Shown here piece after piece: positions 1,596 to 17,080 of a stretch of 28,383 nucleotides of DNA. The stretch's first letter is position 1. Each line of letters starts with the position of its first letter. The translations under genes and the position numbers were made by a program. Origin of the DNA: an uncultured delta proteobacterium (GTDB lineage Bacteria > Desulfobacterota > Syntrophobacteria > BM002); NCBI GenBank assembly GCA_963712115.1, contig CAVQGX010000059.1:1-28383 (forward strand), read 5' to 3'. The notes under the pieces are model-generated. The model was not told the DNA's origin. It worked only from the letters and a program-made list of their open reading frames with translations, and ran no database searches.

Positions 1596-4163
1596 TTATT
1601 GCAAACTGAACAGCAGGGCTTGCTTGATCTCCTCTACTTGTTCAGGGTCCTCCACCCGTTTGCCTTCCTGGGTCAGCACATAAAAGATGTCGGCCACCTG
1701 ATCTATCCTGGTTGAAATTTTGGCCAAGAACACCTGTAATTGCAGGTCCAGCATAGTGCGGGTAATGGCATAGAGGAGGCCCGGGCGGTCCGTAGTATAG
1801 ACCTCGATTATGGTGTACTGATCCGAGGACTGATTGTCCACCACAACTTCATCAGGCTTTGCAGGTGCCCGCCTTCTTTTTTTTCTCTGGTCGGCAGCGT
1901 GCAGTGCCAGTCTGTAATCCAGAGCAAGTCTCCCTTGTAGTGCTTTCTTGAGGTCATCCATCACCTTTTCCCAGGAGATTTCCATCTTGGGCTTCAATGC
2001 GGACACCTCGAAGGTCTGAAAGGCAACACCATTCTGCTTGGTATGGGTTCTGGCTTTGCGGATATCGAGTTGATTCAAAGTCAGTATTCCTGCCGCCCTG
2101 GCGAAAAGACCAAGAGGCAGCCGGCTCATCAGCATGAGTTCCCACATTCCTTGTTTTTCTTCCACTTGCCAGGACAGAACCTCATTCTCCAGCTGACGCT
2201 CCAATCTGTATTGATTAACCACCTCTTCGGGTGTTGCCGTAAGTAGATATCGCGGTGGCATCTGCTCAAAGTGCAAATTTAACTCTTCTTTGGTCATTTC
2301 GTCGCCGAGCAACTCTGCCACTTGTCGCTTCAGAGATAGGAGCCTAGCCGCCACCGCCCTTACATCAGGATCACCCCTTTCCAAGCGATGGAGGAGGCAC
2401 TGATATAGTTCGAGCATAGGCAGGCTCTGCCAAAATTCCCAGGCCTGCGGCCCAGTGGCACGAAGGTCGGCGAGGGAGTGGAGTAAGAGCATTTTCAGCA
2501 GCTCTACCGAACCAATTTCACCAGCGCAATGCTGAAGCATCTGCTCGTCATCTATATCTCGACGGGCTGCACTGTCTGTGAGTAGCACATGGTTGGCCAC
2601 CAGGAAGCTCAGGAGCTGCTTTTCCTCATCGGCAAGACCGAGACGATCCCCAATGAGCAGTGACATCTCCCCTCCCCTCCGGGCATGGCCATGGCCTCCA
2701 CTTTTACCAACGTCGTGGATTAGCCCTGCCAGCAAGAGCACTTCCTGATCCCTAATACCGTCAAGCCATTCAGGAGTCAGCGGAAAGTCAGAATCATGTT
2801 CACCGTTGAGCAGCTTTTTCAGCTCCGCAAAAGTCCGAAGATGGTGTTCATGAACCGGGTATAGATGAAAAGCGTCATGCTGAACCAAAGCATGGACCTG
2901 GCGAAGTTCTGGGATGAGGGTTGGAAGCACTTCTGTTTCATAGAGGGCTCTTATTGTCTTGATCCCCGAGTCCTCTGCCCTGATAATCTCGAAAAGCCAA
3001 TCACGCAGTTCTGTCTGACCTTCTAAGCGGCCCGTTAGCTGGACAGCCTGGCCTTTGGCCCATTGGTAAGCTTCCACACTCAGGTCCACACCCAAATGGA
3101 CCGCCTGTTTGAACAGCTCCAGCAGCCCCTGTCCTTCATGGTTCAACTTGTCGCTGTCCACCATTAGCAGGCCGCGCTCCACCCACATTCCAGGCGCAAC
3201 TTCTTCCCTGGGAGGCTCAACCTCTTCCTCAACACCAGAGGCAATCCAGGCTCGCAGCAATTCCATGAAACGATTGGCTATCAAGCCAATCTCATAGAAA
3301 TGTCCCTCCAACTCCTTCATCATGACTTCAACGGCGAGGAAATCCCCTTCATCTTCATAACCCAAGCTGTGGGCCACTTCCCGTTGTGCCTCGTACTGCA
3401 ACTGGGTCTCCTGGCCCCTTTTGAAAAGCTGGAGATGATTTCTTACTTGCAAGAAAAAGCGTTCGGCTTTCTGCAGGGCTGAATAACTGCCTGAATCCAG
3501 ATTGTTTGTTTCAAGCCAACTTTCGGTGCCGTTGAGCAAATAGCGAGCCCAACGGATGCGATTGAGCTCACCCAAGCCGCCACTGCTGTACTCTAAGTCT
3601 GGTTCGAGGATAAATGATGGGTCTGGCTGCCCGTCTTTCCTCTCCAGCCAGTCCTGTAAGAAAGCCCGAATCGATTGCCGGTCCCTGTCTGACTCGATTT
3701 GTTCCATTAACGATAGCCGCAGGTCATCCATCAATTGGCGAGAGCCACTAATAAATCGACTGTCGAGAAGACTGCTCAACCAGCCGAAGTCACTCAAGCA
3801 CAGCTCCACAGCCTCCTCTACTTTGAGTGCTTGAGACTGGACCTCCCAACCGGCGTGTTCTAGAGGCTGGACGATACCTGTCTTCCAAACATCTTCTTCG
3901 AAGGGGGCTTCAGAGTCTTGGAGGAAGAGCAGATTTATTGGCGAAAAGGGACCGAGCTGACGTCGCCCGTATTCTCCAATGGCTAAGACTGCTCCATAGC
4001 GGCGGATTTCCAGGGCATGCAGATCACTGCGGTTGGTCAACCTATTGTAGAGGGAAATAAGAGCCACGTCGACCATGGCAGATATTCTCCCCGGATCCTC
4101 CAGTTGCTCGACTTCTTTCAGTTTTTTTCTCTGGTTGCTGAGATGGGTTACTATTTGTTCCAT
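1596..4163 (-). CDS. glnD: GlnD-family [protein-PII] uridylyltransferase/uridylyl-removing enzyme with a degenerate NTase motif
   Basis: 855 aa. NTase-like start (AIGEYGRRQLGPFSPINLLFL), EPDLEYSSGGL, HD domain (VQHDAFHLYPVHEH...LIHDVGK...ADLRATGP) and two C-terminal ACT domains (DNQSSDQYTIIEVYTTDRPGLL...KISTRIDQVADIFYV). Confidence 0.92.
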   Translation of the reverse strand: MEQIVTHLSNQRKKLKEVEQLEDPGRISAMVDVALISLYNRLTNRSDLHALEIRRYGAVLAIGEYGRRQLGPFSPINLLFLQDSEAPFEEDVWKTGIVQPLEHAGWEVQSQALKVEEAVELCLSDFGWLSSLLDSRFISGSRQLMDDLRLSLMEQIESDRDRQSIRAFLQDWLERKDGQPDPSFILEPDLEYSSGGLGELNRIRWARYLLNGTESWLETNNLDSGSYSALQKAERFFLQVRNHLQLFKRGQETQLQYEAQREVAHSLGYEDEGDFLAVEVMMKELEGHFYEIGLIANRFMELLRAWIASGVEEEVEPPREEVAPGMWVERGLLMVDSDKLNHEGQGLLELFKQAVHLGVDLSVEAYQWAKGQAVQLTGRLEGQTELRDWLFEIIRAEDSGIKTIRALYETEVLPTLIPELRQVHALVQHDAFHLYPVHEHHLRTFAELKKLLNGEHDSDFPLTPEWLDGIRDQEVLLLAGLIHDVGKSGGHGHARRGGEMSLLIGDRLGLADEEKQLLSFLVANHVLLTDSAARRDIDDEQMLQHCAGEIGSVELLKMLLLHSLADLRATGPQAWEFWQSLPMLELYQCLLHRLERGDPDVRAVAARLLSLKRQVAELLGDEMTKEELNLHFEQMPPRYLLTATPEEVVNQYRLERQLENEVLSWQVEEKQGMWELMLMSRLPLGLFARAAGILTLNQLDIRKARTHTKQNGVAFQTFEVSALKPKMEISWEKVMDDLKKALQGRLALDYRLALHAADQRKKRRRAPAKPDEVVVDNQSSDQYTIIEVYTTDRPGLLYAITRTMLDLQLQVFLAKISTRIDQVADIFYVLTQEGKRVEDPEQVEEIKQALLFSLQ

Positions 4164-4236
4164 TAGGCCATTCTTCCTTATGTCTCGGGGTCGAGATTTA
4201 GCTGTTTTGCATAGATTTTTTTCAAATTGCGCTCAA

Positions 4237-4341
4237 GGACTAATGGACTGTTGGCATGGAGCATGGAGCATTGGGCAGTAGTGAAATCCAAGGTCTGTTA
4301 TTCAGCATTCTCAATATGCCTACTGGCTACTGGCCTACTGT
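4237..4341. repeat. Inverted heptamer arms upstream of glnD
   Basis: GGCATGGAGCATGGAGCATTGGGCAGTAG on the left, CTACTGGCTACTGGCCTACTGTCCCCTATGCGCTCTGTGCTCC on the right; roughly complementary. Confidence 0.7.
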
Positions 4342-4601
4342 CCCCTATGCGCTCTGTGCTCCTAAATATTAAACCGGTTTAGTCTTGCTAACACGTTACC
4401 ACGCAGTCAAAGTTTTTATTATACCGGGATTTGGATTAAAAAGAATAGAAATCTGAGGAGGCATAGGGCAGAGGGCATAGGGAAATACAGCTGTCAGCGG
4501 GAGACCAGGCAGTTACGAAGACTAGCTAGTGAACGCTATCGAGATTCTGTTAGTCTGGATCCCGGAATCGGCCGACGACGGATTCCGAGAAGACGTCTTA
4601 T

Positions 4602-4668
4602 GGCGGGCACAGAGGCCCGCCTTCTTATAGTTCTTCGACTCACGGGCGGGGGTAAACCCCGCCCCTAC
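4602..4668 (-). repeat. Two REP-like palindromes (GTAG class)
   Basis: GGCGGGC-ACAGAG-GCCCGCC (4602-4621) and GGGCGGGGGTAAACCCCGCCCCTAC (4644-4668); the latter reads GTAG-GGGCGGGG-TTTAC-CCCCGCCC on the minus strand. Confidence 0.75.
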
Positions 4669-4869
4669 ATGATTTGGTTGGTAATGAACGAAACTTCAGA
4701 TAACTCTTCCTAAGTAATTATGTTTCGAACATTTGAGAATTAGGATTTAGGATTTGTTTCGTGCTTCGGATTTGGGATTTCGAATTTCTGATCTCCTCTT
4801 CGAAGCCTACAACCTCTCACAGGCGCCACAACCTCAGTTGAGAATTCAGTGATAGCAACTCCCAAGAGA

Positions 4870-7203
4870 TCAGCCTAACGGATCATTCTCCACCAGATCC
4901 CAGATTCCGCAAGGGCAGGCTGCAGCGCAAAAACCACAGCCAATACAAAGATCGGGATCTACTAGCATTTCCAAACCGTTTTCCTCTTCCTCTTTCTTGG
5001 AGATGGCCCCCTTGGGACAGATGGTTATGCAGACGCCGCAATCACGGCATGATCCGCAGGAAGAGCACTCCGTGGCACAATGTTCAATGGACTCGAAGCT
5101 CTGCAAGCGGGGGTCGAAGTATTCCAGCTTGATCCGGGAGCGATCAATGATTTGTCGGGTGTCTCCCCGAGGTCGCTTTCCTCCCAGGATGTCGTTTATG
5201 GCCTGGGCCGCGGTGCGCCCGGCGCCGATGGCATCGGTGAGAAGCCCAAGCTTTACCGCATCGCCCAGGGCAAATATCTGGGGATCCGTGGTCTGAAAGA
5301 TGTCATTAACCTCAATAAAGCCGTTCTGGGTTCTCACCGTTTTTGGAAGAAAATCCACATCAGGCTGATCTCCAATGGATATGATCACGGTGTCGGCTGG
5401 AATAACTTCACCGCTTGTTAGTTCTACGCCATCTGCGGTGATTTCCTTGGTAAAGCATGGCCAGCGAAACTTGGCGCCAATTTCTTCCGCTGCCTCTCGT
5501 TCAGCACCGAAAGATAAAGGTGTCTGAATATCAATGAGGGTGATGTCCTCTGCGCCCAGCCTGTGTGCCTCTGTAGCCGCGTCACAACCCACATTTCCCG
5601 CCCCGATTACTACTACCCTTTTTCCGACCTTGGCCTCGCCAGCCTTGCTCTGCCGGAGAAACTGGAGAGCCGGAATCATCCTCTCTTTGCCAGGAACGGG
5701 GAGGATACGAGGTTTTTGCGCTCCCACAGCAATAACTACGAAATCGTAGTCCTCTTTTAGCCTTTCAACCTCTTCGCTCTCCAACTTCTGTTGCAGATGT
5801 ATGTGGGGAAGAGCCTCACGGGCCCGCGCCAGTTCAGCATCTACAATTTCATCGGGAATTCGACTTCTGGGAATAAGGGAGCTTATCTTGCCCCCCAACT
5901 TTTTCTCCAGATCAAAGATAATTGCCTCGTGGCCATGTTGTCGCAGTTGCCAGGCCACAGACAGGCCGCCAGGGCCACCGCCGATAATCGCTATCTTACT
6001 CCCTGACAGGGGTGGAAGTTCAGGCAGTTTGGCCTTCAGACTTGCCTTGCCCAGACTACTCACGTCCACCGGCGTCATGCCGGCCCACTGACGGGTGCAG
6101 CCCTGCATGCAGAGGTTGGGGCAAAGGTAGCCGCAGACTGTTGCGGGAAAAGGCGTATAGGCCAGGGCCATGTCCACGGCCTCATCCACACGACCCTCCC
6201 TGATCAACCGCCAGCGGTCATGGACCGGGATACCGGTGGGACAGCTGGCCTCGCATGGGGGCATGTATGCCTGGTTTTCCCACACCGGAACATAGCGTCT
6301 GAGCTCGCCGTTGGTGATCACTGGAATAGCACTGCGGTCAAGATCGGTGAGGTCACCAATTAGTCCGCCCTTTCCAAGCTCTTGGTCCCACACCTCCTGG
6401 CAGAACTCAGTCATGGAGCGCCGGGCTGCAAAACCCCTTTCCATGGGACTCCTGGCTTCCAGCAGTTGCCACTGCTCCAGGTTAGCAAGTTTTTTATAAA
6501 GTTTGCTTTGATTTATTCTTTCCAAGAAAACCTTGAGATTTTCTTTTAACCACTCCCAGTCCTCGTCAGCTATGGGCACTAGCTTGGCGTCGTTCTGACT
6601 GAACCCTCCATGCGGACCCCGGAAGAATATCTTGCCCGCCACCATCCCGACGCAGGGGCGGTATCCCAGAATATTCTCGGGGTTTTGGCCTTCATGGCCA
6701 CAGACCACCGCAATGCCACCAGCCATGAATTCAGCAAAATAATCCCCCACCGAACCCAAGACCCAGAGCTCCGGCGGATCAAAGCGGGGGTTGTACTTGG
6801 TCATGGTCATACCCCTGGCACCAATGTTGCCGGCAACATAGATCTTGCCCTGGGCCATGGCATTGGCGGTTCCATTGGTGGCATGCCCGTGGACGGTAAT
6901 TTCCGCCCCCGCATTGAGCCAACCCACATCATCTGAGGCTGGCCCCAGAATCTCGATGCGAGTGTTGGAAAAACCCATGGATCCAGTTCTTTGGCCGGGT
7001 GAGCCGACAATTCTGATATTTAGCGGCTCATCTCCCGCCCGCCACAAACGGCCGCCGATTCCATGCTGACCAAAGGCCTCAACTTCTATGTCGCAGTGCC
7101 CACCAGAAACGGCAGATTGGATTATCTCCTCCAACACCCGCGATTCAATCCGGTGGCCGTTTTCCATGCCGGAAATCACATAAGACCGGTCTTTCTGGTT
7201 CAT
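4870..7203 (-). CDS. Glutamate synthase GXGXG (GltB C-terminal) domain fused to a GltD-like FAD/NAD(P)H oxidoreductase and a C-terminal 2x[4Fe-4S] ferredoxin
   Basis: GXGXG beta-helix repeats (GQRTGSMG, GHATNGTANAM, GSVGDYFAEFMAGG), GltD-type Cys clusters (CEASCP, CGYLCPNLCMQGC), FAD motif IIGGGPGGL, pyridine-nucleotide motif IGAGNVG, and CRDCGVCITICP / CIGCGFCAAACP. Confidence 0.9.
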   Translation of the reverse strand: MNQKDRSYVISGMENGHRIESRVLEEIIQSAVSGGHCDIEVEAFGQHGIGGRLWRAGDEPLNIRIVGSPGQRTGSMGFSNTRIEILGPASDDVGWLNAGAEITVHGHATNGTANAMAQGKIYVAGNIGARGMTMTKYNPRFDPPELWVLGSVGDYFAEFMAGGIAVVCGHEGQNPENILGYRPCVGMVAGKIFFRGPHGGFSQNDAKLVPIADEDWEWLKENLKVFLERINQSKLYKKLANLEQWQLLEARSPMERGFAARRSMTEFCQEVWDQELGKGGLIGDLTDLDRSAIPVITNGELRRYVPVWENQAYMPPCEASCPTGIPVHDRWRLIREGRVDEAVDMALAYTPFPATVCGYLCPNLCMQGCTRQWAGMTPVDVSSLGKASLKAKLPELPPLSGSKIAIIGGGPGGLSVAWQLRQHGHEAIIFDLEKKLGGKISSLIPRSRIPDEIVDAELARAREALPHIHLQQKLESEEVERLKEDYDFVVIAVGAQKPRILPVPGKERMIPALQFLRQSKAGEAKVGKRVVVIGAGNVGCDAATEAHRLGAEDITLIDIQTPLSFGAEREAAEEIGAKFRWPCFTKEITADGVELTSGEVIPADTVIISIGDQPDVDFLPKTVRTQNGFIEVNDIFQTTDPQIFALGDAVKLGLLTDAIGAGRTAAQAINDILGGKRPRGDTRQIIDRSRIKLEYFDPRLQSFESIEHCATECSSCGSCRDCGVCITICPKGAISKKEEEENGLEMLVDPDLCIGCGFCAAACPCGIWDLVENDPLG

Positions 7204-7246
7204 AGCATTATCTCCGAAACAAATACTTAATAGTTAGTAACCAAAC

Positions 7247-7268
7247 AGCATAGGGCATAGAGCATAGA
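7247..7268 (+). repeat. Heptamer array (GCATAGR)x3, left arm flanking the four-helix-bundle gene
   Basis: AGCATAGGGCATAGAGCATAGA; reverse-complementary to the array at 7705-7762. Confidence 0.85.
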
Positions 7269-7294
7269 GAAAAAAAACAGAACTGTTTGGTGTG

Positions 7295-7648
7295 TCATAA
7301 AGTGTATTGGAAACTAGTAATTTGTCGGCATAAGCTATCGAGCCGATCTAATAAAGAATCCATAGTCTCGTTGTTTATAAGCTCTCTCGTCTCCAATAAA
7401 ATGACAATATTAGCGTTCTCGTATGTGGACCTTCGTGCAATGTCCAGGAAACGTCTGAACTCTTTACTTGAAGAAGAACCTGAGCCTTCAGATATGTTAT
7501 TTGACATGGACATTCCGGAGCCCCTAAGCTGGTCGGCAAAACGGTATAATCATTTCCTTTCAAGCTCATCTGCAATATCAAAGAGTTCATTAGCTATTTC
7601 GATTGCCAACTGCCAGATTCGTAGATCTTGAAATCTAAATTTTGCCAT
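7295..7648 (-). pseudogene. Four-helix-bundle protein (23S rRNA intervening-sequence protein family) with an in-frame TGA at codon 33
   Basis: Manual translation: MAKFRFQDLRIWQLAIEIANELFDIADELERK*LYRFADQLRGSGMSMSNNISEGSG...KEFRRFLDIARRSTYE...ITSFQYTL (117 codons). Matches the family pattern F.DL..WQ.A...QLR....S...NI.EG...EF..FL.IA..S..E. TGA at 7550-7552. Confidence 0.9.
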
Positions 7649-7704
7649 GGTTCTGTGCCCCTTTCGTCTGCTAGAGAGTTTAACTATGCGCCTTTAAGTT
7701 TTGT

Positions 7705-7762
7705 CCCTATGCCCAATGCTCTATGCCCTATGCCCTATGCTCTTTGCCCTATGCTCTATGCC
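7705..7762 (+). repeat. Heptamer array (CYCTATG)x8, right arm flanking the four-helix-bundle gene
   Basis: CCCTATG CCCAATG CTCTATG CCCTATG CCCTATG CTCTTTG CCCTATG CTCTATG. Confidence 0.9.
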
Positions 7763-7780
7763 TAATCGCCACAAGCTTGA

Positions 7781-9415
7781 CTAGACGACGAAACTTATGC
7801 TTAACCGCTCGGCCGCTGGTTTATCGTTGATTCCAATGGCATCGGACATGCCAATGGGCAGGGAGGTCGAGCGGCCCAGGGGCGCCAGAATCTTCCTCAG
7901 CTCGGTGTCAAAGGAGAGAAACACATCCACCACTCTTTCCGCCACCTTTTCCGGATCCAGACGGCGATATAACCGTGGGTCCTGGGAGGTGATGCCCTTG
8001 GGGCAGAGGCCAACATTACAGAGATTACAGCGGTCGGATTCCGAGCCAATGCAGCCAGCAGCGGCCTGCATAATGTATTTGCCAATCTGCACCGCACTTG
8101 CTCCCAGCATAATGAGGGCGGCGGCATTGGCTGCCAGGTTACCTTGTTTTCCCACACCACCTGCGGCAATCAGCGGAATCTCGTTCTGCATTCCCACCTT
8201 GACCAGGTTCAGATAACAGTCGCGAATATTGCTGGCAATGGGGTATCCCATGTGATTCATGGAAACGTTGTAGGCTGCTCCGGTACCACCATCTTCACCA
8301 TCAATGCAGAGGGCGGCAGCATAGGGATTCCGGGTCAAATTATTGAGAACCGCAAGTGCAGTGGAGGTACCAGAAATCTTTGGATAGACAGGCACCCGAA
8401 AACCCCAGGCCATATACATTGACTGGATCATCTTAGCCACTGATTCTTCGATGGAGTACTTGGTCTGGTGCGTGGGCGGACTGGGAAGACTCACGCCAGC
8501 GGGAACCCCCCGTATAGCAGCGATAAGGTTGTTCACCTTGTACCACATTAACAGGCCGCCATCGCCGGGCTTGGCCCCCTGGCCGTATTTGATTTCCACC
8601 GCACAGGGGTCTTCCTTCATATCCGGCAAGGCATGGATGATCTCATCCCAGCCGAAATAACCGCTGGCAATCTGCAAAATTGTGTACTTCAAAAAGCGGG
8701 AGCGCAACAGTCTCGGGGGGCATCCCCCTTCGCCAGTGCACATACGGACCGGCATCCCCAGCTCCTCATTGAGGTAGGCCACGCCCATTTGCAATCCTTC
8801 CCACATGTTGGGAGAAAGGGCCCCGAAGGACATGGAGCCAATCATCAGGGGATAAATCTCTCGCACCGGCGGGATCCAACCTTGTTCCCTCTGCAGCCGA
8901 ATGTTTTCCTCGGCTGGAAGAATGCGCCCCAGAAGTGTCCGCAGCTCAAATTCATGGCGCCCTGCGTCGAGAGCGGGGTCAGTGAGCATGGAGATTCTGG
9001 TAAACTTGATTTGATCCAGAATGCCGCCCACCACATTCCTGCGACCCCCACGCCGGCGCGGTTGACCTCCCCGGTCGATGTGGTATTTGAGCTTGTCCGC
9101 TTCGTCGTTTCGGTAAACCATTATGCATTCGTTGGGGCAGACCATGGAGCACATGCCGCAGCCGACACAAGCATAAGCAGGGTCGGTCTTCTGCCTGATG
9201 CCATAGAAGACCTTGTAGACATTGGAGGGCTCTCTATCCAACCCCATGGGGGTTTGCACCAGCCTCTGGCGATGGACCCCCAGGTCAATGGCATGAACCG
9301 GGCAGACGGCGGTGCAGCGCCCGCACAAGCTGCATTTATCCTTTTGCCAAAGGATCTGCCAAGGCAAATCTTTGGGGCTTAGTGTTGAAGGGGTAATAGT
9401 TCCGTTTGCCGACAT
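7781..9415 (-). CDS. Glutamate synthase FMN-binding subunit (GltB2-type) with an N-terminal 2x[4Fe-4S] ferredoxin
   Basis: CSLCGRCTAVCP and CVGCGMCSMVCP; MSFGALS, TGEGG, QIASGYFG, EIKYGQGAKPGDGGLL, DGEDGGTGA; Fe-S motif C...CNLCNVGLCPKGITSQ. Confidence 0.93.
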   Translation of the reverse strand: MSANGTITPSTLSPKDLPWQILWQKDKCSLCGRCTAVCPVHAIDLGVHRQRLVQTPMGLDREPSNVYKVFYGIRQKTDPAYACVGCGMCSMVCPNECIMVYRNDEADKLKYHIDRGGQPRRRGGRRNVVGGILDQIKFTRISMLTDPALDAGRHEFELRTLLGRILPAEENIRLQREQGWIPPVREIYPLMIGSMSFGALSPNMWEGLQMGVAYLNEELGMPVRMCTGEGGCPPRLLRSRFLKYTILQIASGYFGWDEIIHALPDMKEDPCAVEIKYGQGAKPGDGGLLMWYKVNNLIAAIRGVPAGVSLPSPPTHQTKYSIEESVAKMIQSMYMAWGFRVPVYPKISGTSTALAVLNNLTRNPYAAALCIDGEDGGTGAAYNVSMNHMGYPIASNIRDCYLNLVKVGMQNEIPLIAAGGVGKQGNLAANAAALIMLGASAVQIGKYIMQAAAGCIGSESDRCNLCNVGLCPKGITSQDPRLYRRLDPEKVAERVVDVFLSFDTELRKILAPLGRSTSLPIGMSDAIGINDKPAAERLSISFVV

Positions 9416-10509
9416 GTTTCAACCTCCCGCCGATCAGGGCGAATTATGGCAGTGTCTAAATGCATTGGCTGAAAGTCTTGGCTTTTATCCCGATCGGGAA
9501 TTGCCGCATCCAGACCACACATTTCCGATGAGATGGCGTAAAGACCTGGTTTACCCCCCACCACACCCGGCCGCAGTTTCTTCCGGTCCTGAACAATAAA
9601 TAAAGTTTTGTCCGGCAGGCATCCCATCACACAGTTGGGCCCATCTATGATCATTCTTCTGCAAGTGTGCTTTAACTGCTTGAGGAAAGCTGCATTGGGA
9701 TGGTTTTCCAAATCCTGATCCTGAAGGGGGGTTATTAAATGCTTGTACATCTCGATTCCCAGTCCCAACCTGTAGTGGAGAAAGTGGAGGATGTGGGTGA
9801 AGACTTCCGAATCTGATTGATAGCCCATGTAACCTGGGAATCCCCGCGAGGTAAGAAACTCCCTAATTGGGATAAAGGCGGTGTTTTCGCCGTTGGTCAT
9901 GGTGGCAATCCCTTGGATAAAGAAAGGGTGGCAGGCATAGAGATTTATGGCGTAGTTGGTATTCTGCCGTCCCTGGGCCAGCATGACCCTGGCCTGGAGT
10001 TCTTTGCGATCGAGTTGTAGATATTCAGCCACGGTCATGGGATCGCCAATTTCCTTGATCATGATCACGTCGGGCCAAAAGCTGTAAACAATCATGTCCT
10101 CAGCTTCTTCTCCCATGCGCCGAAGTTGAAGGCGGATCATCAGCAACCGATGCTTTATTTCAGCATCGCTCAGCCCTTCCCAGTCCTCGGGTAACTCATA
10201 AGCCCGGACGAGATAGATGTCCCGTTTGGGAACTCCGTAAGGTGGCCTCTTGGGAATCTTGATGGAGATCTTGTACTTGGTCATGAAACCAACATCCATC
10301 ATGAACCGATCCAGCTTCTTCAAGCCTTCATTGCTGAAGATGCCAGAGAGGATGGGAGCACCATCCAACTCTTCAAAGGGCCCTCCAAGATCAGAAAAAA
10401 AGAGGCCCACCCCGGAACCATCATGCCCCTCCCTCATCACATCCAGTGCTTGGATGGCCATCATGGGAGACTGGGGTTCATCGCTAGTGATTGCAAATAA
10501 ACGGCACAT
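9379..10509 (-). CDS. Glutamate synthase class II glutamine amidotransferase subunit (GltB1-type)
   Basis: N-terminal nucleophile Cys (MCRL), DGSG, QGRQNTN, CHPF, NGEN, SDSE, DGP, DRKKLRP; SD GGGAGG upstream; overlaps the next gene by 37 nt. Confidence 0.92.
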   Translation of the reverse strand: MCRLFAITSDEPQSPMMAIQALDVMREGHDGSGVGLFFSDLGGPFEELDGAPILSGIFSNEGLKKLDRFMMDVGFMTKYKISIKIPKRPPYGVPKRDIYLVRAYELPEDWEGLSDAEIKHRLLMIRLQLRRMGEEAEDMIVYSFWPDVIMIKEIGDPMTVAEYLQLDRKELQARVMLAQGRQNTNYAINLYACHPFFIQGIATMTNGENTAFIPIREFLTSRGFPGYMGYQSDSEVFTHILHFLHYRLGLGIEMYKHLITPLQDQDLENHPNAAFLKQLKHTCRRMIIDGPNCVMGCLPDKTLFIVQDRKKLRPGVVGGKPGLYAISSEMCGLDAAIPDRDKSQDFQPMHLDTAIIRPDRREVETCRQTELLPLQH

Positions 10510-11200: not shown

Positions 11201-12505
11201 ATGGTGTCAAAATCACTGGAAACACAGCGTGTGGCCTCGGGTGTGAGCCAGTTAGATCGGCTTTTGGGGGGCCTTTACATCGGCGACAACGTGGTTTGGC
11301 ATGATGATGCCGGTAGCCTTGCCTCCGTTTTTTGTCTCAATTTTATTCAGGCATCGCAGGCCCAAAACAAGCCCCTAATCTATGTGACCTTTGACCGCTC
11401 ACCTAAGAATCTCTTAGACAAGCTAGGACCTTTAGGTGAAAATCCCAATCTTACCATCTTGGATTGTTTTACCTACGGTAAGGGTGCCGGTTCTCCGATT
11501 TTCCTCAAATTTTATGAGGAAGTCGAGTCCGAATGCCAGATCATACAAGTAGAAGAGCCGCGCGATATGGAACACTTCATGGACACCCTCTATGGTGTTC
11601 ATGCCACAATGGAAGGAGACGTTCGCTTTGTCTTCGAAAGTATAACTGGCATGCAAGAGCTCTGGGGTGGAGAAGAACATATAGTTAATTTCTACTCCCA
11701 TTCCTGTCCGAGACTCTACGAACTGAATACCATTGCTTACTGGATATTAGAGAAGAGTGCCCATTCGCCTCGACTGAGAGCCCAGATCAATCAGATTGCT
11801 CAGGTGGCAATAGATCTGGCAATCAAAAGAGGGACTACATCACTGACCATTTTGAAAGCTGAGAAGCGAAGCCTGGAAAATCAGCACAAGCCGCACAATT
11901 ATTGGACCAAAGATCTGACTGTAACTTTTGATGATGAAAGGCGCACCTCGCGCCGTGTTGATTTTGGCTTGCGTCTCAAGGAGCTTCGCAGCAAAAGAGG
12001 GTTGTCGCAGACCGAGCTCGCCAAGCTAGTTGGAGTCACACCCAGTACTATTTCCCAGGTTGAGAGCAACTTGATTTACCCTTCTTTGCCGGCTCTTATG
12101 AAAATGGCGGAAGTGCTCTCTGTGGAAATAAGCTCTTTTTTTCAAGAACAAGCGGAACCTAAGAAGCGTCTTATCTTTACTGCAGCCGAAGCAGTGGAAG
12201 TAAAGTTCCCCGATCTGCCTGAAGGGGCAGTCCTGGCAAGACTGTTGTTACCGGTTGATTTTGATCCCAAGGCCGAACCTTATTTAATTGAGATTTCGCC
12301 CAAGGAAAAGCTTCCTTCTCATTTTTTCATTCACAAAGGTGAAGAGTTGGGATACCTGCTCTCTGGCAGATTGCAGGTGAAATTAGAAAAGTCGGCTTAC
12401 AGCCTTCGTGCGGGGGATGTAATCTACCTCACCTCGGAAATGCCTACCCAGTGGGAGAATCCCGGCCCAGGTGTGGCCAAGCTTCTTTGGATCAAGGTGA
12501 AATGA
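11201..12505 (+). CDS. Transcriptional regulator: KaiC/RecA-like domain with degenerate Walker A + XRE HTH + cupin
   Basis: SGVSQLDRLLGGL..G start typical of KaiC/RadA; YVTFD, ILDCF, RFVFESIT; HTH RLKELRSKRGLSQTELAKLVGVTPSTISQVE...PSL; cupin HKGEELGYLLSG...GDVIY...WENPG. Confidence 0.88.
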   Translation: MVSKSLETQRVASGVSQLDRLLGGLYIGDNVVWHDDAGSLASVFCLNFIQASQAQNKPLIYVTFDRSPKNLLDKLGPLGENPNLTILDCFTYGKGAGSPIFLKFYEEVESECQIIQVEEPRDMEHFMDTLYGVHATMEGDVRFVFESITGMQELWGGEEHIVNFYSHSCPRLYELNTIAYWILEKSAHSPRLRAQINQIAQVAIDLAIKRGTTSLTILKAEKRSLENQHKPHNYWTKDLTVTFDDERRTSRRVDFGLRLKELRSKRGLSQTELAKLVGVTPSTISQVESNLIYPSLPALMKMAEVLSVEISSFFQEQAEPKKRLIFTAAEAVEVKFPDLPEGAVLARLLLPVDFDPKAEPYLIEISPKEKLPSHFFIHKGEELGYLLSGRLQVKLEKSAYSLRAGDVIYLTSEMPTQWENPGPGVAKLLWIKVK

Positions 12506-12507
12506 GG

Positions 12508-12860
12508 CAAAGGGCATAGAGCATAGGGCATAGAGAAATACAGCTGGCAGAAAAAGCTATCTAACCGCAGAGTACGCAGAGGTCGCAGAGAAGATCTAAT
12601 TCAGAACCACGAAGGGCACGAAGATCACGAAGAAAACAATCGCTTAAAGGCAACCCGCGGAGCGGGTTGTCCCGATGGATCCCATCGGGACAAATGGGGA
12701 AGCTCTTGAGCGATCCTTAAATTTTATGATTTCTTGTCCTTTTTCGTGTACTTCGTACTTTCGTGTTTTCGTGGTTGAATTTTTTATCCGTGAAATCCGT
12801 GTGTCCCGCTTCGGCGGGACCCGTGCCTAAAAAATAATCTCTTTGTGACCTTTGTGTGGT
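12508..12860. repeat. Nested palindromic element, family C copy 1, between convergent genes
   Basis: GCATAGR, CGCAGAG and CACGAAG arrays on the left and TTCGTG arrays on the right; core stem ATCGCTTAA/TTGAGCGAT enclosing hairpins CAACCCGC-GGA-GCGGGTTG and TCCCGATG-GATCC-CATCGGGA; also GTCCCGC-TTCG-GCGGGAC. Confidence 0.85.
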
Positions 12861-12870
12861 GAGAGAGTCG

Positions 12871-13743
12871 CTACTTGGTTTTCCTGTCCCTGGGATTAGT
12901 TGAGTAAACCCCTTTTTCCTCCCAGAGAGCCTCTCGCTGGCGCAAAATACGTAGAGTCTTCCCAGGGTCCTGGATGCTCATTGCCGTGAGCAATGCGTTA
13001 ATCAGGCTGGTAGCAGCTGTAAATGATTCTATGAATGAGTCCAGCTGACAGCTTGCTGTTAGCACCCAGTGGGCGTAACTGGCTAAAGGCGAGAGGGGGG
13101 AATCGGTTATCGCTCCCACCCTAGCCCTTTTATTTCGTGAATGTTGGAGAACCTCCAAGGTAATCTGCGTATATCGGGGAAAGCTGATACCCACAACTAG
13201 GTCGGATCTTCCCAACCCCTGCAATATATCCCACATCTCTCCGTGGCCCGGTACGAGAAGTTGAGCCTGTTTGCCCAGAAAACGGAGATATGTTGCCAAT
13301 GTCAGAGCAGGCGCATGAGCTCCACGAAGTCCCACCACAAAAATCCTCTCGGCTGACTGCAGGTCCGCCACCGCTCGTTCGAAGATATCAAGTGAGAGAT
13401 TCCTCAGGGTCTGAGACAGGTTGTGAATGTCCTCTTGGAGGACCTTTACAACCACGTCGCCCGTCTGCCGCACGTGGTCAACAGTATGTTCCAGGCGGGT
13501 CACAGTGGAAAGGCGATCTTGTAAGCCCTGGCGGAACTTTCTCTGCATGCCCGGATACCCATCAAAACCCAGGGCTTGAGCCAATCGCACCACAGTGGCT
13601 TCGCTCACACCCACGTTTTGAGCGAGCTGCGAGGCCGTGAGGAAGATGGCCTCCTCGTAGTGTTCTATGATGTAGTGCATGATCCGCCGTTGGGCTGGAG
13701 TGAGACGAACTTTATTATCTACTAGGAGTTCTTGGAATGGCAT
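12871..13743 (-). CDS. MurR/RpiR-family transcriptional regulator (HTH + SIS)
   Basis: LTPAQRRIMHYI...TASQLAQNVGVSEATVVRLAQALGFDGYP; SIS domain IFVVGLRG...ISFPRYT...AITDSPLSPL. Confidence 0.95.
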   Translation of the reverse strand: MPFQELLVDNKVRLTPAQRRIMHYIIEHYEEAIFLTASQLAQNVGVSEATVVRLAQALGFDGYPGMQRKFRQGLQDRLSTVTRLEHTVDHVRQTGDVVVKVLQEDIHNLSQTLRNLSLDIFERAVADLQSAERIFVVGLRGAHAPALTLATYLRFLGKQAQLLVPGHGEMWDILQGLGRSDLVVGISFPRYTQITLEVLQHSRNKRARVGAITDSPLSPLASYAHWVLTASCQLDSFIESFTAATSLINALLTAMSIQDPGKTLRILRQREALWEEKGVYSTNPRDRKTK

Positions 13744-13821: not shown

Positions 13822-14062
13822 ATCCAGGAGATAGAATCCAGAAGTCAGAATCCAGTAGGCAAAGAGCATAGAGAAATACAGCTGGCAGCTGACAGCTTGC
13901 AGCAGGCAGCAAGAGGAAAGCTCAAAGGGGAAGTCGTAAAAACCGTATAAGTCGTAGAAGTCGATAGATCAGCTCCTGATCCCTGACCCCCGACCCCTGG
14001 TCCCTTGCCCTGAACCTTGCGCCTTGAGCCCTGCGCCTGCTGTATACTGACTACTGGATTCT
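13822..14062. repeat. Composite heptamer/nonamer-arm element upstream of the GS-like gene
   Basis: AGAATCCAG...TCAGAATCCAGTAG at the left end and CTGACTACTGGATTCT at the right; internal GCAGCTG, AAGTCGTA, CCCTGAC and GCCTTG arrays. Confidence 0.75.
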
Positions 14063-15425: not shown

Positions 15426-15462
15426 TTTCACCGATGTGAGATGAATTATCGCATAGCGTTAA

Positions 15463-15569
15463 GGGCTCAAGGCGCAGGGCGACTTAGGTCATGAGGCTTC
15501 GCCGTCATTAGGTCACTACGCTACGCTGTCATTTATTGTAAGAGGTAGAGGGCCAGAAGATTGCGGATT
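15463..15569 (+). repeat. 107-bp dispersed repeat, family B copy 1
   Basis: About 100/107 identical to 19032-19138 by manual alignment; followed by a (CTCYATG)x4 arm ending at ~15612. Confidence 0.93.
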
Positions 15570-15634
15570 GCGAAAAAATTGAACTCTATGCTCCATGCTC
15601 TATGCTCTATGCTAAAACAAAGGAGAAACTCAGA

Positions 15635-16708
15635 ATGGAAGAGTGGATTGAACAATTACAGAACAGTGTAAACACACTGGAGAAACTCAAGGAATATATC
15701 AACGTTACCCCGCAGGAAGAGGAGGGTATTACCACTCTCAATACTCAGTGGGGTACGACGCCTTACTTTGCCTCTTTGATGATCCGCGATGATCCCAACT
15801 GTCCGATCAGAAAGCAGGTTGTCCCCTCAGTAAAGGAGAAAGAAAACCGCTACGGTATTCCAAACTATTTGATCTGGAAAGAAAATCGCGCCACAGATGA
15901 GATTAGACCGGACTCCATTGCCAGACAGTACTTTGACCGCATAGCCTTTACTGTCACTGACGTCTGTGCCAACTACTGCCGGCACTGTTTCCGCAAAGAA
16001 CTGGTTGTGGACCGAGATCTCAAGCTGAGAATGGACGTAGAAGAAGGTCTCGATTGGATCCGAGAACATGAAGAGATTCGCGACGTCCTCGTCACTGGTG
16101 GGGATCCTTTTATCCTCTCAGACGAAAGGATCGAATACCTCATCCGTAAGTTGCGTGAGATTCCCCATATCGAAATGATTCGTTTCGGTACCCGCACACC
16201 CATCGTGCTGCCCCACAGAATTACCCAAAGTCTGATGAAGGTGCTGAGTAAATACCACAGGGTTCCCTTGTGGGTGAACACCCAGTGCAATCATCCCAAT
16301 GAAATCACCGAAAAAACAGCCCAAGCAGTTTACGACCTTCTCTCTTGCGGGGTTAATGTGGGCAATCAGGCTGTGCTGCTAAAGGGAATCAATGACGACG
16401 TGGAGTCTTTCAGGAAGCTGCACCAAAAACTGCTCACTGTTCGGATTCGGCCTTATTATGTCTTTTATTGCGAACCGGCTCCGGGAATTGACCATTTCCG
16501 CACCCCAGTCGAGAAAGGAGCCGAACTCATTCGAGACGCCCTTCGAGGCCATACCACCGGCCTGGCCCAACCCATGTACGTCATAGCCACAAATATCGGC
16601 AAGATTCCTTTAATGCCTGACTATTACCTAGTGGATAAAAACGAGAAAGAGTACACCTTGAGGAATTACAAAGGTGAGATAACCACATTGCCGAATATTC
16701 CGGAGTGA
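15635..16708 (+). CDS. KamA-family radical-SAM/PLP 2,3-aminomutase, substrate uncertain
   Basis: CANYCRHCFR (CxxxCxxC), TGGDP, IRFGTRTP, NHP, NQAVLLKGIND, RPYY, HFRT, LRGHTTG and PLP-lysine GKIP. Start moved to ATG 15635 (SD AAGGAG 15620-15625); the ATG at 15602 lies in a heptamer repeat. Confidence 0.92.
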   Translation: MEEWIEQLQNSVNTLEKLKEYINVTPQEEEGITTLNTQWGTTPYFASLMIRDDPNCPIRKQVVPSVKEKENRYGIPNYLIWKENRATDEIRPDSIARQYFDRIAFTVTDVCANYCRHCFRKELVVDRDLKLRMDVEEGLDWIREHEEIRDVLVTGGDPFILSDERIEYLIRKLREIPHIEMIRFGTRTPIVLPHRITQSLMKVLSKYHRVPLWVNTQCNHPNEITEKTAQAVYDLLSCGVNVGNQAVLLKGINDDVESFRKLHQKLLTVRIRPYYVFYCEPAPGIDHFRTPVEKGAELIRDALRGHTTGLAQPMYVIATNIGKIPLMPDYYLVDKNEKEYTLRNYKGEITTLPNIPE

Positions 16709-16710
16709 TG

Positions 16711-17080
16711 AGGCATGGGGCATAGAGCATGGAGCAAGGGGACAGCGAGAAAGGCAGGAAATAATTAACCGCAGACGAACGCAGATGAACGCGGACGAGC
16801 GCAGACAGACCGTTTATTAACCACGAAGAACACGAAGGACACGAAGAGAAGATCGCTTAAAGGATGCATGAGAGAACCTAGAGCACAAAGATAAGCTAGC
16901 ATATTTTTGTGCTCTAGGTTCCCTCATTGGTCCCGATGATCCCATCGGGACCACCCGCGGTGCGGGTGATCTTTAAGCGATCCTTTCCTCGACTCAATCT
17001 TTTCTCACATCCTGTACATCTTGTTAATCCTGTCCAATCTCTATCTTTTCACCTGTTCGTGCTCTGCGCGACCTTAGCGG
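16711..17080. repeat. Nested palindromic element, family C copy 2, between convergent genes
   Basis: GCATRG, CGCAGA and CACGAAG arrays; perfect 12-bp stem GATCGCTTAAAG (16851-16862)/CTTTAAGCGATC (16971-16982) enclosing three hairpins. Confidence 0.85.

Follow-up and report, generated by a model that had tools for sequence, protein, structure and literature searches.

Which amino acid is the substrate of the enzyme encoded at positions 15635 to 16708 of the DNA studied here? The window, by which we mean the whole stretch of 28,383 nucleotides analysed, comes from contig CAVQGX010000059.1 of an uncultured delta proteobacterium (assembly GCA_963712115.1; Desulfobacterota, Syntrophobacteria), and the gene, kamA in the following, encodes a member of the KamA family of radical S-adenosylmethionine (SAM) and pyridoxal phosphate (PLP) aminomutases. 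To our knowledge only four specificities are established in this family: two for L-lysine, giving (S)-beta-lysine or (R)-beta-lysine, one for glutamate and one for arginine. A first-pass annotation had proposed that the enzyme uses a different substrate, with glutamine and ornithine as candidates, since a longer acid in the pocket might go with a shorter side chain of the substrate. On the whole, our analysis supports the different substrate well. In its chemistry the enzyme is almost certainly a PLP/radical-SAM 2,3-aminomutase, and the sequence comparisons make it very probable that the enzyme has a new specificity, acting on a free L-alpha-amino acid other than lysine or glutamate. Tentatively, and with confidence just short of even, we rank first an L-glutamine 2,3-aminomutase, which would convert glutamine to or from beta-glutamine (3-aminoglutaramate), because two unrelated kinds of neighbouring genes, a ligase of the glutamine synthetase (GS) family and a glutamine-type importer, point to this amino acid.

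We start with the gene itself. The listed open reading frame runs from 15602 to 16708 on the forward strand (368 aa). Since an AAGGAG ribosome-binding site at 15620-15625 lies nine bases 5' of an in-frame ATG at 15635, and since most homologues among the best 120 of 5864 relatives have the resulting 357 aa, this ATG is the likely start. The protein contains the Pfam domains Radical_SAM and the start of LAM_C, and matches by HMMER the lysine 2,3-aminomutase of C. subterminale (2A5H, E 1.4e-96), which we take to be the only solved member of the family. In this alignment C111, C115, C118, R120 and K323 correspond to C125, C129, C132, R134 and K337 of 2A5H and are invariant among orthologues; the segment CANYCRHCFR thus retains CxxxCxxC with an arginine two residues on, which is the residue binding the substrate carboxylate in this family. 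The codons of E280, A318 and K323, computed from the sequence, start at 16472, 16586 and 16601, and the intact cysteine motif, following arginine and PLP lysine described by the first-pass annotation are found at the coordinates it gave. An AlphaFold2 model built from a 59-sequence alignment (pLDDT 93.8, pTM 0.91) has 2A5H as its top Foldseek match in the PDB (E 7.8e-39, TMq 0.83, 42% identity), while the second match, a viperin-like enzyme, reaches only 7e-7. Because the fold, CxxxCxxC, Arg134, Lys337 and the GGD motif of lysine 2,3-aminomutase are all kept, the radical mechanism is presumably the same as well.

The substrate site, however, differs from that of 2A5H. The motif YQCD of the lysine enzyme reads FYCE, and VVDAPGGGGK reads VIAT--NIGK with a gap of two residues, so that D293 is replaced by Glu and D330 by Ala; HFNHP reads QCNHP and HRYPDR reads RQYFDR, Arg112 is replaced by Gln and Arg136 by Glu, and DPLHE becomes NYLIWKE in a region rebuilt with insertions. 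Every motif difference named by the earlier annotation (FYCE, the Ala with a loop about two residues shorter, QCNHP and RQYFDR) is present in this alignment. Its further statement that the DPLxE motif and the C-terminal cysteine cluster are absent also holds, in the alignment and in the translation: the zinc-ligand cysteine of the lysine enzyme's NDC motif, at the Cys268 position, is Asp (NDD), the protein terminates ahead of the cluster, and no cysteine occurs beyond residue 279. We take Asp293 and Asp330 of lysine 2,3-aminomutase to contact the epsilon-ammonium group, Lys and Asn to occupy the equivalent positions in glutamate 2,3-aminomutase, and the zinc site of the lysine enzyme to consist of Cys268 and C-terminal cysteines. 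In accordance with these signatures, a reference sequence passing the lysine model AblA (P0127, 638 against a cut-off of 525) carries D/D at the two specificity positions, and one passing the glutamate model (P0143, 693 against 650) carries K/N.

Family membership was judged by the curated cut-offs of NCBIfam, which were also used to label ten representatives and with them the reference clades. The aminomutase passes the KamA subfamily model TIGR00238 (286.4 bits, cut-off 199.2) and fails every function-level model: arginine 2,3-aminomutase TIGR04468 (364.2 against 600, the best such score), glutamate 2,3-aminomutase TIGR04368 (352.6 against 650), AblA TIGR03820 (350.8 against 525.4), AblA-like-2 (240.3 against 396) and EpmB, the beta-lysylation enzyme of elongation factor P, TIGR03821 (192.7 against 369.3). 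A word-indexed search gives 5864 relatives, of which the best 120 share 81-99% identity and are named solely 'KamA family radical SAM protein' or 'lysine 2,3-aminomutase'. Among 1.84 billion representative sequences, one per 50% cluster, there are one full-length member of the clade (P0121, 80%, 683 bits) and six fragments, and the next protein falls to 314 bits and 38% identity. A collection of species-level genomes contains 341 relatives; the best 80 of them have 80-99% identity, and their metagenome-assembled genomes are labelled mostly as Desulfobacterales, Desulfobacteraceae, Syntrophobacteria, Desulfocapsaceae, Desulfatiglandales and unclassified Deltaproteobacteria. In an even selection of 301 genomes from the phylum of the window (the phylum sample), 13 carry an orthologue, 12 at full length (73-100% identity) and one as a fragment at a contig end, and the next-best matches fall to 47%; no orthologue was found in the sole other genome of the window's genus in this sample. 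The distribution is patchy and the conservation high.

The clade is isolated in the tree as well. Its members share at least 73% identity with each other and at most about 48% with anything outside, and in a FastTree phylogeny of 129 KamA sequences it is supported at 1.0, with a stem of 0.71 substitutions per site as compared with a maximum of 0.38 within. Comparison of 92 orthologues with 123 other KamA sequences shows 39 clade-specific positions. Glu280 is present in all orthologues and A318 in 99% of them, while the other sequences mostly carry Asp (79% at 293, 76% at 330), which argues that this signature is not due to chance. Clade-specific as well are Q98 (R in 70% of the others; Arg112 in the lysine enzyme), E122 (R in 75%; Arg136), C218, Y278 and the rebuilt DPLxE region. 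As a whole the side-chain pocket matches that of no known family member and does not vary within the clade. The tree neighbour, which is also the nearest labelled sequence (43% identity), is P0128 from Streptomyces griseocarneus, named arginine 2,3-aminomutase by NCBI and passing the arginine model (629.9 against 600). The pairing is supported at only 0.49, and a wider group with three unnamed sequences at 0.84. The aminomutase does not group within the lysine, glutamate, EpmB or BlsG-type enzymes, which the first-pass annotation had named, together with the matching activity, as what would speak against its proposal.

The genome of the window has three KamA genes including the one at 15635. 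The second is of lysine type (D/D; 501.7 against 525.4 on the lysine model) and stands beside a Ddl-like ATP-grasp gene; the third is of glutamate type (K at 293; 611.3 against 650) and stands between an ATP-grasp gene and an M20 hydrolase. Because both types share the genome with kamA, lysine and glutamate are unlikely substrates here, and in our preferred reading the substrate is neither of them nor, probably, arginine. A second KamA-family gene also occurs at 8 of 80 close loci and at 3 of 11 loci from the phylum sample, with three further unnamed types. One of these types, of about 600 aa, lies beside the pair of kamA and its GS-like neighbour (described below) in L041:2506-4329 and L105:1223-3031; it has a 180-aa N-terminal extension with Lys/Asn at the specificity positions, and belongs to a mostly archaeal family that is 64-73% conserved across Methanosarcinales, Thermoplasmata, Altiarchaeales, Odinarchaeota and WOR-3. 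This type is probably the methanogen-type glutamate 2,3-aminomutase, which it resembles; a methanogen glutamate aminomutase with an N-terminal extension was reportedly described by Tunckanat et al. in 2022. As side observations on the two paralogues of the window's genome, the lysine-type gene (L001, contig C27, 460 aa) overlaps the start of its neighbour, a gene resembling D-Ala-D-Ala ligase, and the cluster of the glutamate-type gene (L002/L086, contig C16) follows the canonical glnA at a distance of 3.6 kb on its downstream side. This ATP-grasp/KamA/M20 trio recurs, with a different KamA type, around the GS-like/kamA pair in L033, L043 and L052, and may represent an undescribed beta-amino-acid peptide pathway.

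The first neighbour which bears on the substrate is the GS paralogue upstream of kamA, referred to as GS-like. It fails the GlnA equivalog TIGR00653 (354.1 against 429.15), whereas the canonical GlnA of the genome, located in a glnD/glnE-like cluster on another contig, passes with 517.6; the two proteins share 36% identity, and the closest PDB relatives of GS-like are archaeal and Gram-positive GS of type I-alpha. Over 56 sequences, GS-like retains the metal glutamates, the His pair, Arg339/344/359 and the DGSS motif, while Arg321 is replaced by Ala in at least 90% and Gly265 by Arg invariantly. If residue roles are taken over from the S. typhimurium enzyme as we understand them, with Arg321 at the glutamate carboxylate, DGSS as the ammonium motif and the arginines binding phosphate, GS-like looks like an active ammonia ligase which would hold its acid substrate differently. 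For the gene context we use 80 close loci, or 91 when the 11 loci from the phylum sample are added. Of the close loci, 71 have at least 1500 nt upstream, and in 56 of these GS-like is the gene immediately before kamA and has the same orientation; the median gap is 55 nt. Its orthologues occur in four of the 301 genomes, and all four are among the 13 carriers of the aminomutase, with the two genes side by side.

The second neighbour is a polar-amino-acid ABC transporter of GlnHPQ type, found in 12 of the 91 loci. All seven binding proteins tested pass the GlnH equivalog (329-342, cut-off 303), and the same seven score only 163-196 on the Lys/Arg/Orn binding-protein model (cut-off 256); for the transporter of L101, the ATPase passes the GlnQ model and the permease has 296.8 against the GlnP cut-off of 303. 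In six loci without GS-like, GlnHPQ is collinear with the aminomutase within about 2 kb, and this in two gene orders (upstream in L075, L079 and L101; downstream in L030, L078 and L083), and in three of three genomes checked the collinear GlnH is the only one above the cut-off. In the six loci which do have GS-like, GlnHPQ is divergent from it. Where at least 3 kb flank the aminomutase gene on either side (50 loci), 39 loci have one or both of these neighbours: GS-like only in 30, GlnHPQ only in five and both in four. The links to GS-like and to GlnHPQ recur across orders and in several gene orders.

Between the two candidates proposed earlier, glutamine therefore gains from both kinds of neighbours, while for ornithine we find nothing beyond the acidic pocket. 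If the enzyme is a glutamine 2,3-aminomutase working by the mechanism of the lysine enzyme, glutamine would be supplied by the adjacent GS-like ligase or by the GlnHPQ importer and would first form an aldimine with PLP; a 5'-deoxyadenosyl radical would take the C3 hydrogen from the bound substrate, and the amino group would migrate via an azacyclopropylcarbinyl radical, with Glu280 holding the carboxamide in a pocket widened by the shortened loop. In the biosynthetic direction this could be a route to a beta-amino-acid solute. In the salvage direction, beta-glutamate would be turned into beta-glutamine by the GS-like ligase, or beta-glutamine would be imported, and then be converted to glutamine and passed to the adjacent glutamate synthase (GOGAT); such a salvage route would account for the changed pocket of GS-like, for the fact that the ligase is nested within the carriers and for the nitrogen-assimilation setting of the window. 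As a precedent, beta-glutamine is established as an osmolyte, and the GS of a methanogen is reported to amidate beta-glutamate (PMC1224877). More speculatively, the clade would be the founding glutamine 2,3-aminomutase and would form, together with a GS-like beta-glutamate/ammonia ligase and a GlnHPQ-type carrier, a beta-glutamate/beta-glutamine shunt. As a whole we consider this shunt rather doubtful. For bacteria it would be the first genetic route to beta-glutamine. In sulfate-reducing and syntrophic Desulfobacterota it might build beta-glutamine as a nitrogen-rich compatible solute, or alternatively reclaim the beta-amino-acid osmolytes of sediment methanogens into glutamine and GOGAT.

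Several observations weigh against glutamine. The pocket is more acidic than in the relatives (E280, E122, two Arg lost), and the nearest named family is arginine 2,3-aminomutase, which has the shortened loop in common. The ligase is absent from nine of the 12 other carriers in the phylum sample and present in three. In all five genomes tested that have no GS-like at the locus, no orthologue is found anywhere; one of the five is a closed chromosome of 3.2 Mb, and its aminomutase shares 99% identity with that of the window. The link is thus one-sided: the ligase is dispensable for the aminomutase, yet in the 301 genomes it is not found without the aminomutase. GS-like may also not be a plain glutamine supplier, as suggested by the loss of the canonical carboxylate Arg321 and the gain of Arg at G265. 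Furthermore, 11 of the 50 well-flanked loci have neither GS-like nor GlnHPQ, no GlnH above the cut-off is present in the window's own genome, and a GlnH-equivalog score is no proof of the ligand. A literature search found no report of beta-glutamine in Desulfobacterota; in the same search, which covers subscription papers and '2,3-' phrases poorly, neither a glutamine 2,3-aminomutase nor any assignment of the clade appeared.

Among the rival explanations we place highest a 2,3-aminomutase with a cationic substrate, be it arginine-like, ornithine, lysine or a derivative of these, in which Glu280 would make the salt bridge that Asp293 makes in the lysine and arginine enzymes; we regard it as unlikely. 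A cationic substrate would fit the acidic pocket and the kinship to the arginine enzyme. P0128, a BlsG-type enzyme, and the clade are both short forms which lack the zinc-binding C-terminal domain; in both, the PLP lysine is preceded by a loop with 2-3 residues fewer (YVLTTRIGK in P0128), Asp330 is lost, and T319, I321, R91 and W39 are common to both; the arginine model also gives the best function-level score. That score is nevertheless far under the cut-off, and the sister grouping with P0128 is poorly supported. P0128, a single exemplar, keeps Asp at 293 (YHCDN) with Thr at 330, whereas the clade has Glu and Ala and never Asp at 293. A lysine-type D/D paralogue is already in the genome. As for the surroundings, BlsG lies among blasticidin-type antibiotic genes; here, by contrast, the neighbours that recur are related to glutamine and none to arginine, ornithine or lysine, and the transporter binding proteins stay well under the Lys/Arg/Orn cut-off.

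Less probable still is a second glutamate 2,3-aminomutase, whose product beta-glutamate would be amidated by GS-like to beta-glutamine, giving a two-gene osmolyte operon like ablA-ablB. The confinement of GS-like to aminomutase genomes (4/4) is what a downstream enzyme would show, its amino-acid site is altered at R321 and G265, and a methanogen GS using beta-glutamate is on record (PMC1224877). However, the pocket contains Glu280 and Glu122 and lacks the Lys/Asn pair of the glutamate-equivalog sequence P0143, in place of which the clade has Glu/Ala, the score on the glutamate model (353) is far from 650, and the GlnHPQ link would be left unexplained. Glutamate-aminomutase-like genes of K type moreover coexist with the clade in the same genome, and even in the same cluster in L041 and L105. 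The known C. difficile-type glutamate enzyme is itself of the KamA family, and its product beta-glutamate falls in the same small metabolite set as the product proposed for glutamine.

To a similarly small degree we consider another substrate or another radical reaction (asparagine, citrulline, histidine or a gamma-glutamyl compound), the neighbours then being only a general nitrogen setting. The window is indeed a nitrogen-assimilation region with GlnD, a split GOGAT and a GAF-ANTAR protein, and the neighbours of kamA vary: an M20 hydrolase is directly downstream in 13 of the 80 loci, a CBS-ACT protein nearby in 15, another KamA gene in 8 and Hdr/MvhD-like genes upstream in 9. The nitrogen genes other than GS-like are, however, common only to the closest relatives (a GATase in 1 of 80 loci, GlnD and the remaining GOGAT subunits in none), while the GS-like and GlnHPQ links recur widely. 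Finally, that kamA is an inactive or decaying paralogue, for which only the loss of the zinc site speaks, is very improbable, since 171 of 357 positions are at least 97% conserved across the 92 orthologues with all catalytic motifs kept, the frame is intact and contigs from RNA libraries cover the gene.

The coordinates of the gene, its active-site motifs and its neighbours are collected in Table 1.

Table 1. Positions in the window of kamA, its active-site motifs and the flanking features
Feature	Position	Strand	Remarks
RpiR/MurR-type regulator	12871..13743	-	HTH_6 + SIS; divergent from GS-like; beside the pair in 5/80 loci, closest relatives only
Divergent glutamine-synthetase paralogue (GS-like), probably a ligase, 436 aa	14115..15425	+	209 nt upstream of kamA; Gln-synt_C 331.8 bits
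Spacer GS-like to kamA	15426..15634	+	contains copies of genome-wide repeats; bridged by no RNA contig
KamA-family radical-SAM/PLP aminomutase, 'E/A' clade	15635..16708 incl. stop	+	357 aa
CxxxCxxC (C111, C115, C118), predicted [4Fe-4S] ligands	15965..15988	+	alignment to 2A5H; columns invariant
Arg120, after CxxxCxxC	15992-15994	+	aligns with R134 of 2A5H
Glu280, at the Asp293 position of lysine 2,3-aminomutase	16472..16474	+	100% of 92 orthologues; E in 2% of 123 other KamA
Shortened loop A318-T-N-I-G-K323	16586..16603	+	Ala at the Asp330 position of lysine 2,3-aminomutase; K323 = PLP lysine, invariant
Glutamate-synthase-FMN-domain-like protein, 530 aa	17139..18731	-	convergent with kamA; partial PF01645 match, 56.4 bits

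Further neighbours are described here for completeness. The protein convergent with kamA has a Cys-rich N-terminus and belongs to no NCBIfam family; it lies beside kamA in 7 of 80 loci. In the Hdr/MvhD-like genes we see no recurrent logic, and we take them as local gene order. The nitrogen block at 1596-10509 on the reverse strand has the layout of an archaeal-type split GOGAT. It includes a GlnD-like protein, in which only the central and ACT domains are matched (a second, full GlnD is on contig C16), a GXGXG domain fused to a GltD-like oxidoreductase and ferredoxin, and an Fe-S/FMN glutamate-synthase subunit; a 376-aa reading frame without Pfam or NCBIfam match is a putative amidotransferase subunit by position and sequence. 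Between these split GOGAT genes and the RpiR regulator, at 11201-12505 on the forward strand, is a 434-aa fusion of a KaiC-like ATPase, an XRE helix-turn-helix and a cupin, with a PuuR-like C-terminal half.

Many intergenic spacers are filled by tandem heptamers GCATRGR, including 15584-15612, 16713-16736 and 13857-13873; a 17-base pattern of this repeat has 323 matches in the genome, and its reversed control has none. Two oppositely oriented copies enclose kamA exactly and form a 24-nt inverted repeat (15589-15612 and 16713-16736). As a cassette boundary this repeat was rejected, and because it is a copy of the genome-wide heptamer we give it no function. Another inverted repeat pair (14015-14032 and 15462-15479) brackets the GS-like gene. 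Exactly between the repeats flanking kamA, at 15603-16730, the DNA is 98.6% identical to L006 of a closed genome (G001). Identity drops to 94.5% in the following gene, and G001 lacks the GS-like, RpiR and regulator genes found upstream in the window; this pattern may reflect recombination or the exchange of a single gene. In the 430-nt spacer after kamA lies a 166-nt multi-hairpin element (16835-17000; -90.7 kcal/mol, z = -11.5 against shuffles) with about ten diverged copies in the genome (70-83% identity), one of them at 12631-12704. It has no Rfam match and may be a structured intergenic repeat, a miniature inverted-repeat transposable element or a small-RNA family.

As to regulation, an Rfam scan of the whole window at gathering thresholds gives no match, so no known riboswitch precedes GS-like or kamA; the sigma-54 consensus has fewer matches than in shuffled sequences and none upstream of the pair, and a simple promoter scan gives nothing useful. 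In two studies, four runs labelled as metatranscriptomes yield contigs which, at 92-100% likeness, cover the greater part of GS-like and of kamA, and one of 1166 nt spans the entire aminomutase gene; such contigs show neither transcripts nor levels. Since these libraries can be contaminated by DNA and no contig bridges the 209-nt spacer, they are only a weak hint that the two genes are expressed. DNA runs labelled estuary, marine sediment, mangrove and sediment contain more than half of the sampled words, from which we draw no conclusion on habitat.

We now return to glutamine as the preferred substrate and compare the locus with known systems. The role of beta-glutamine as an osmolyte was recognised in the 1990s, and we know of no gene dedicated to it. 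In methanogens, ablA-ablB encode a lysine aminomutase and a beta-lysine acetyltransferase (PMC1224877, PMC9337991). As in that pair, an aminomutase would here stand beside a charge-changing enzyme on the way to a beta-amino-acid solute; unlike it, the partner is a GS-family ligase and not a GNAT enzyme, and it is dispensable in many carriers. The locus also resembles Methanohalophilus portucalensis, where a GS is described as acting on beta-glutamate (PMC1224877), in that a GS-family enzyme would be tied to beta-glutamine; there it is the ordinary GS of the cell, whereas GS-like is a separate paralogue with a changed amino-acid site and is found only with the aminomutase. New in the present analysis are the association with GlnHPQ, the dependence of the ligase on the aminomutase but not the reverse, and the dispensability of the ligase.

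If the glutamine assignment is true, it would add a fifth specificity to the KamA family, for a neutral amide, and broaden the chemistry of PLP/radical-SAM aminomutases; it would also offer a biocatalyst for a beta-amino acid. The clade is common in Desulfobacterota of marine and estuarine sediments, with a relative in 341 species-level genomes, and the pathway, if it exists as proposed, could therefore matter for the turnover of nitrogen and osmolytes in sediments.

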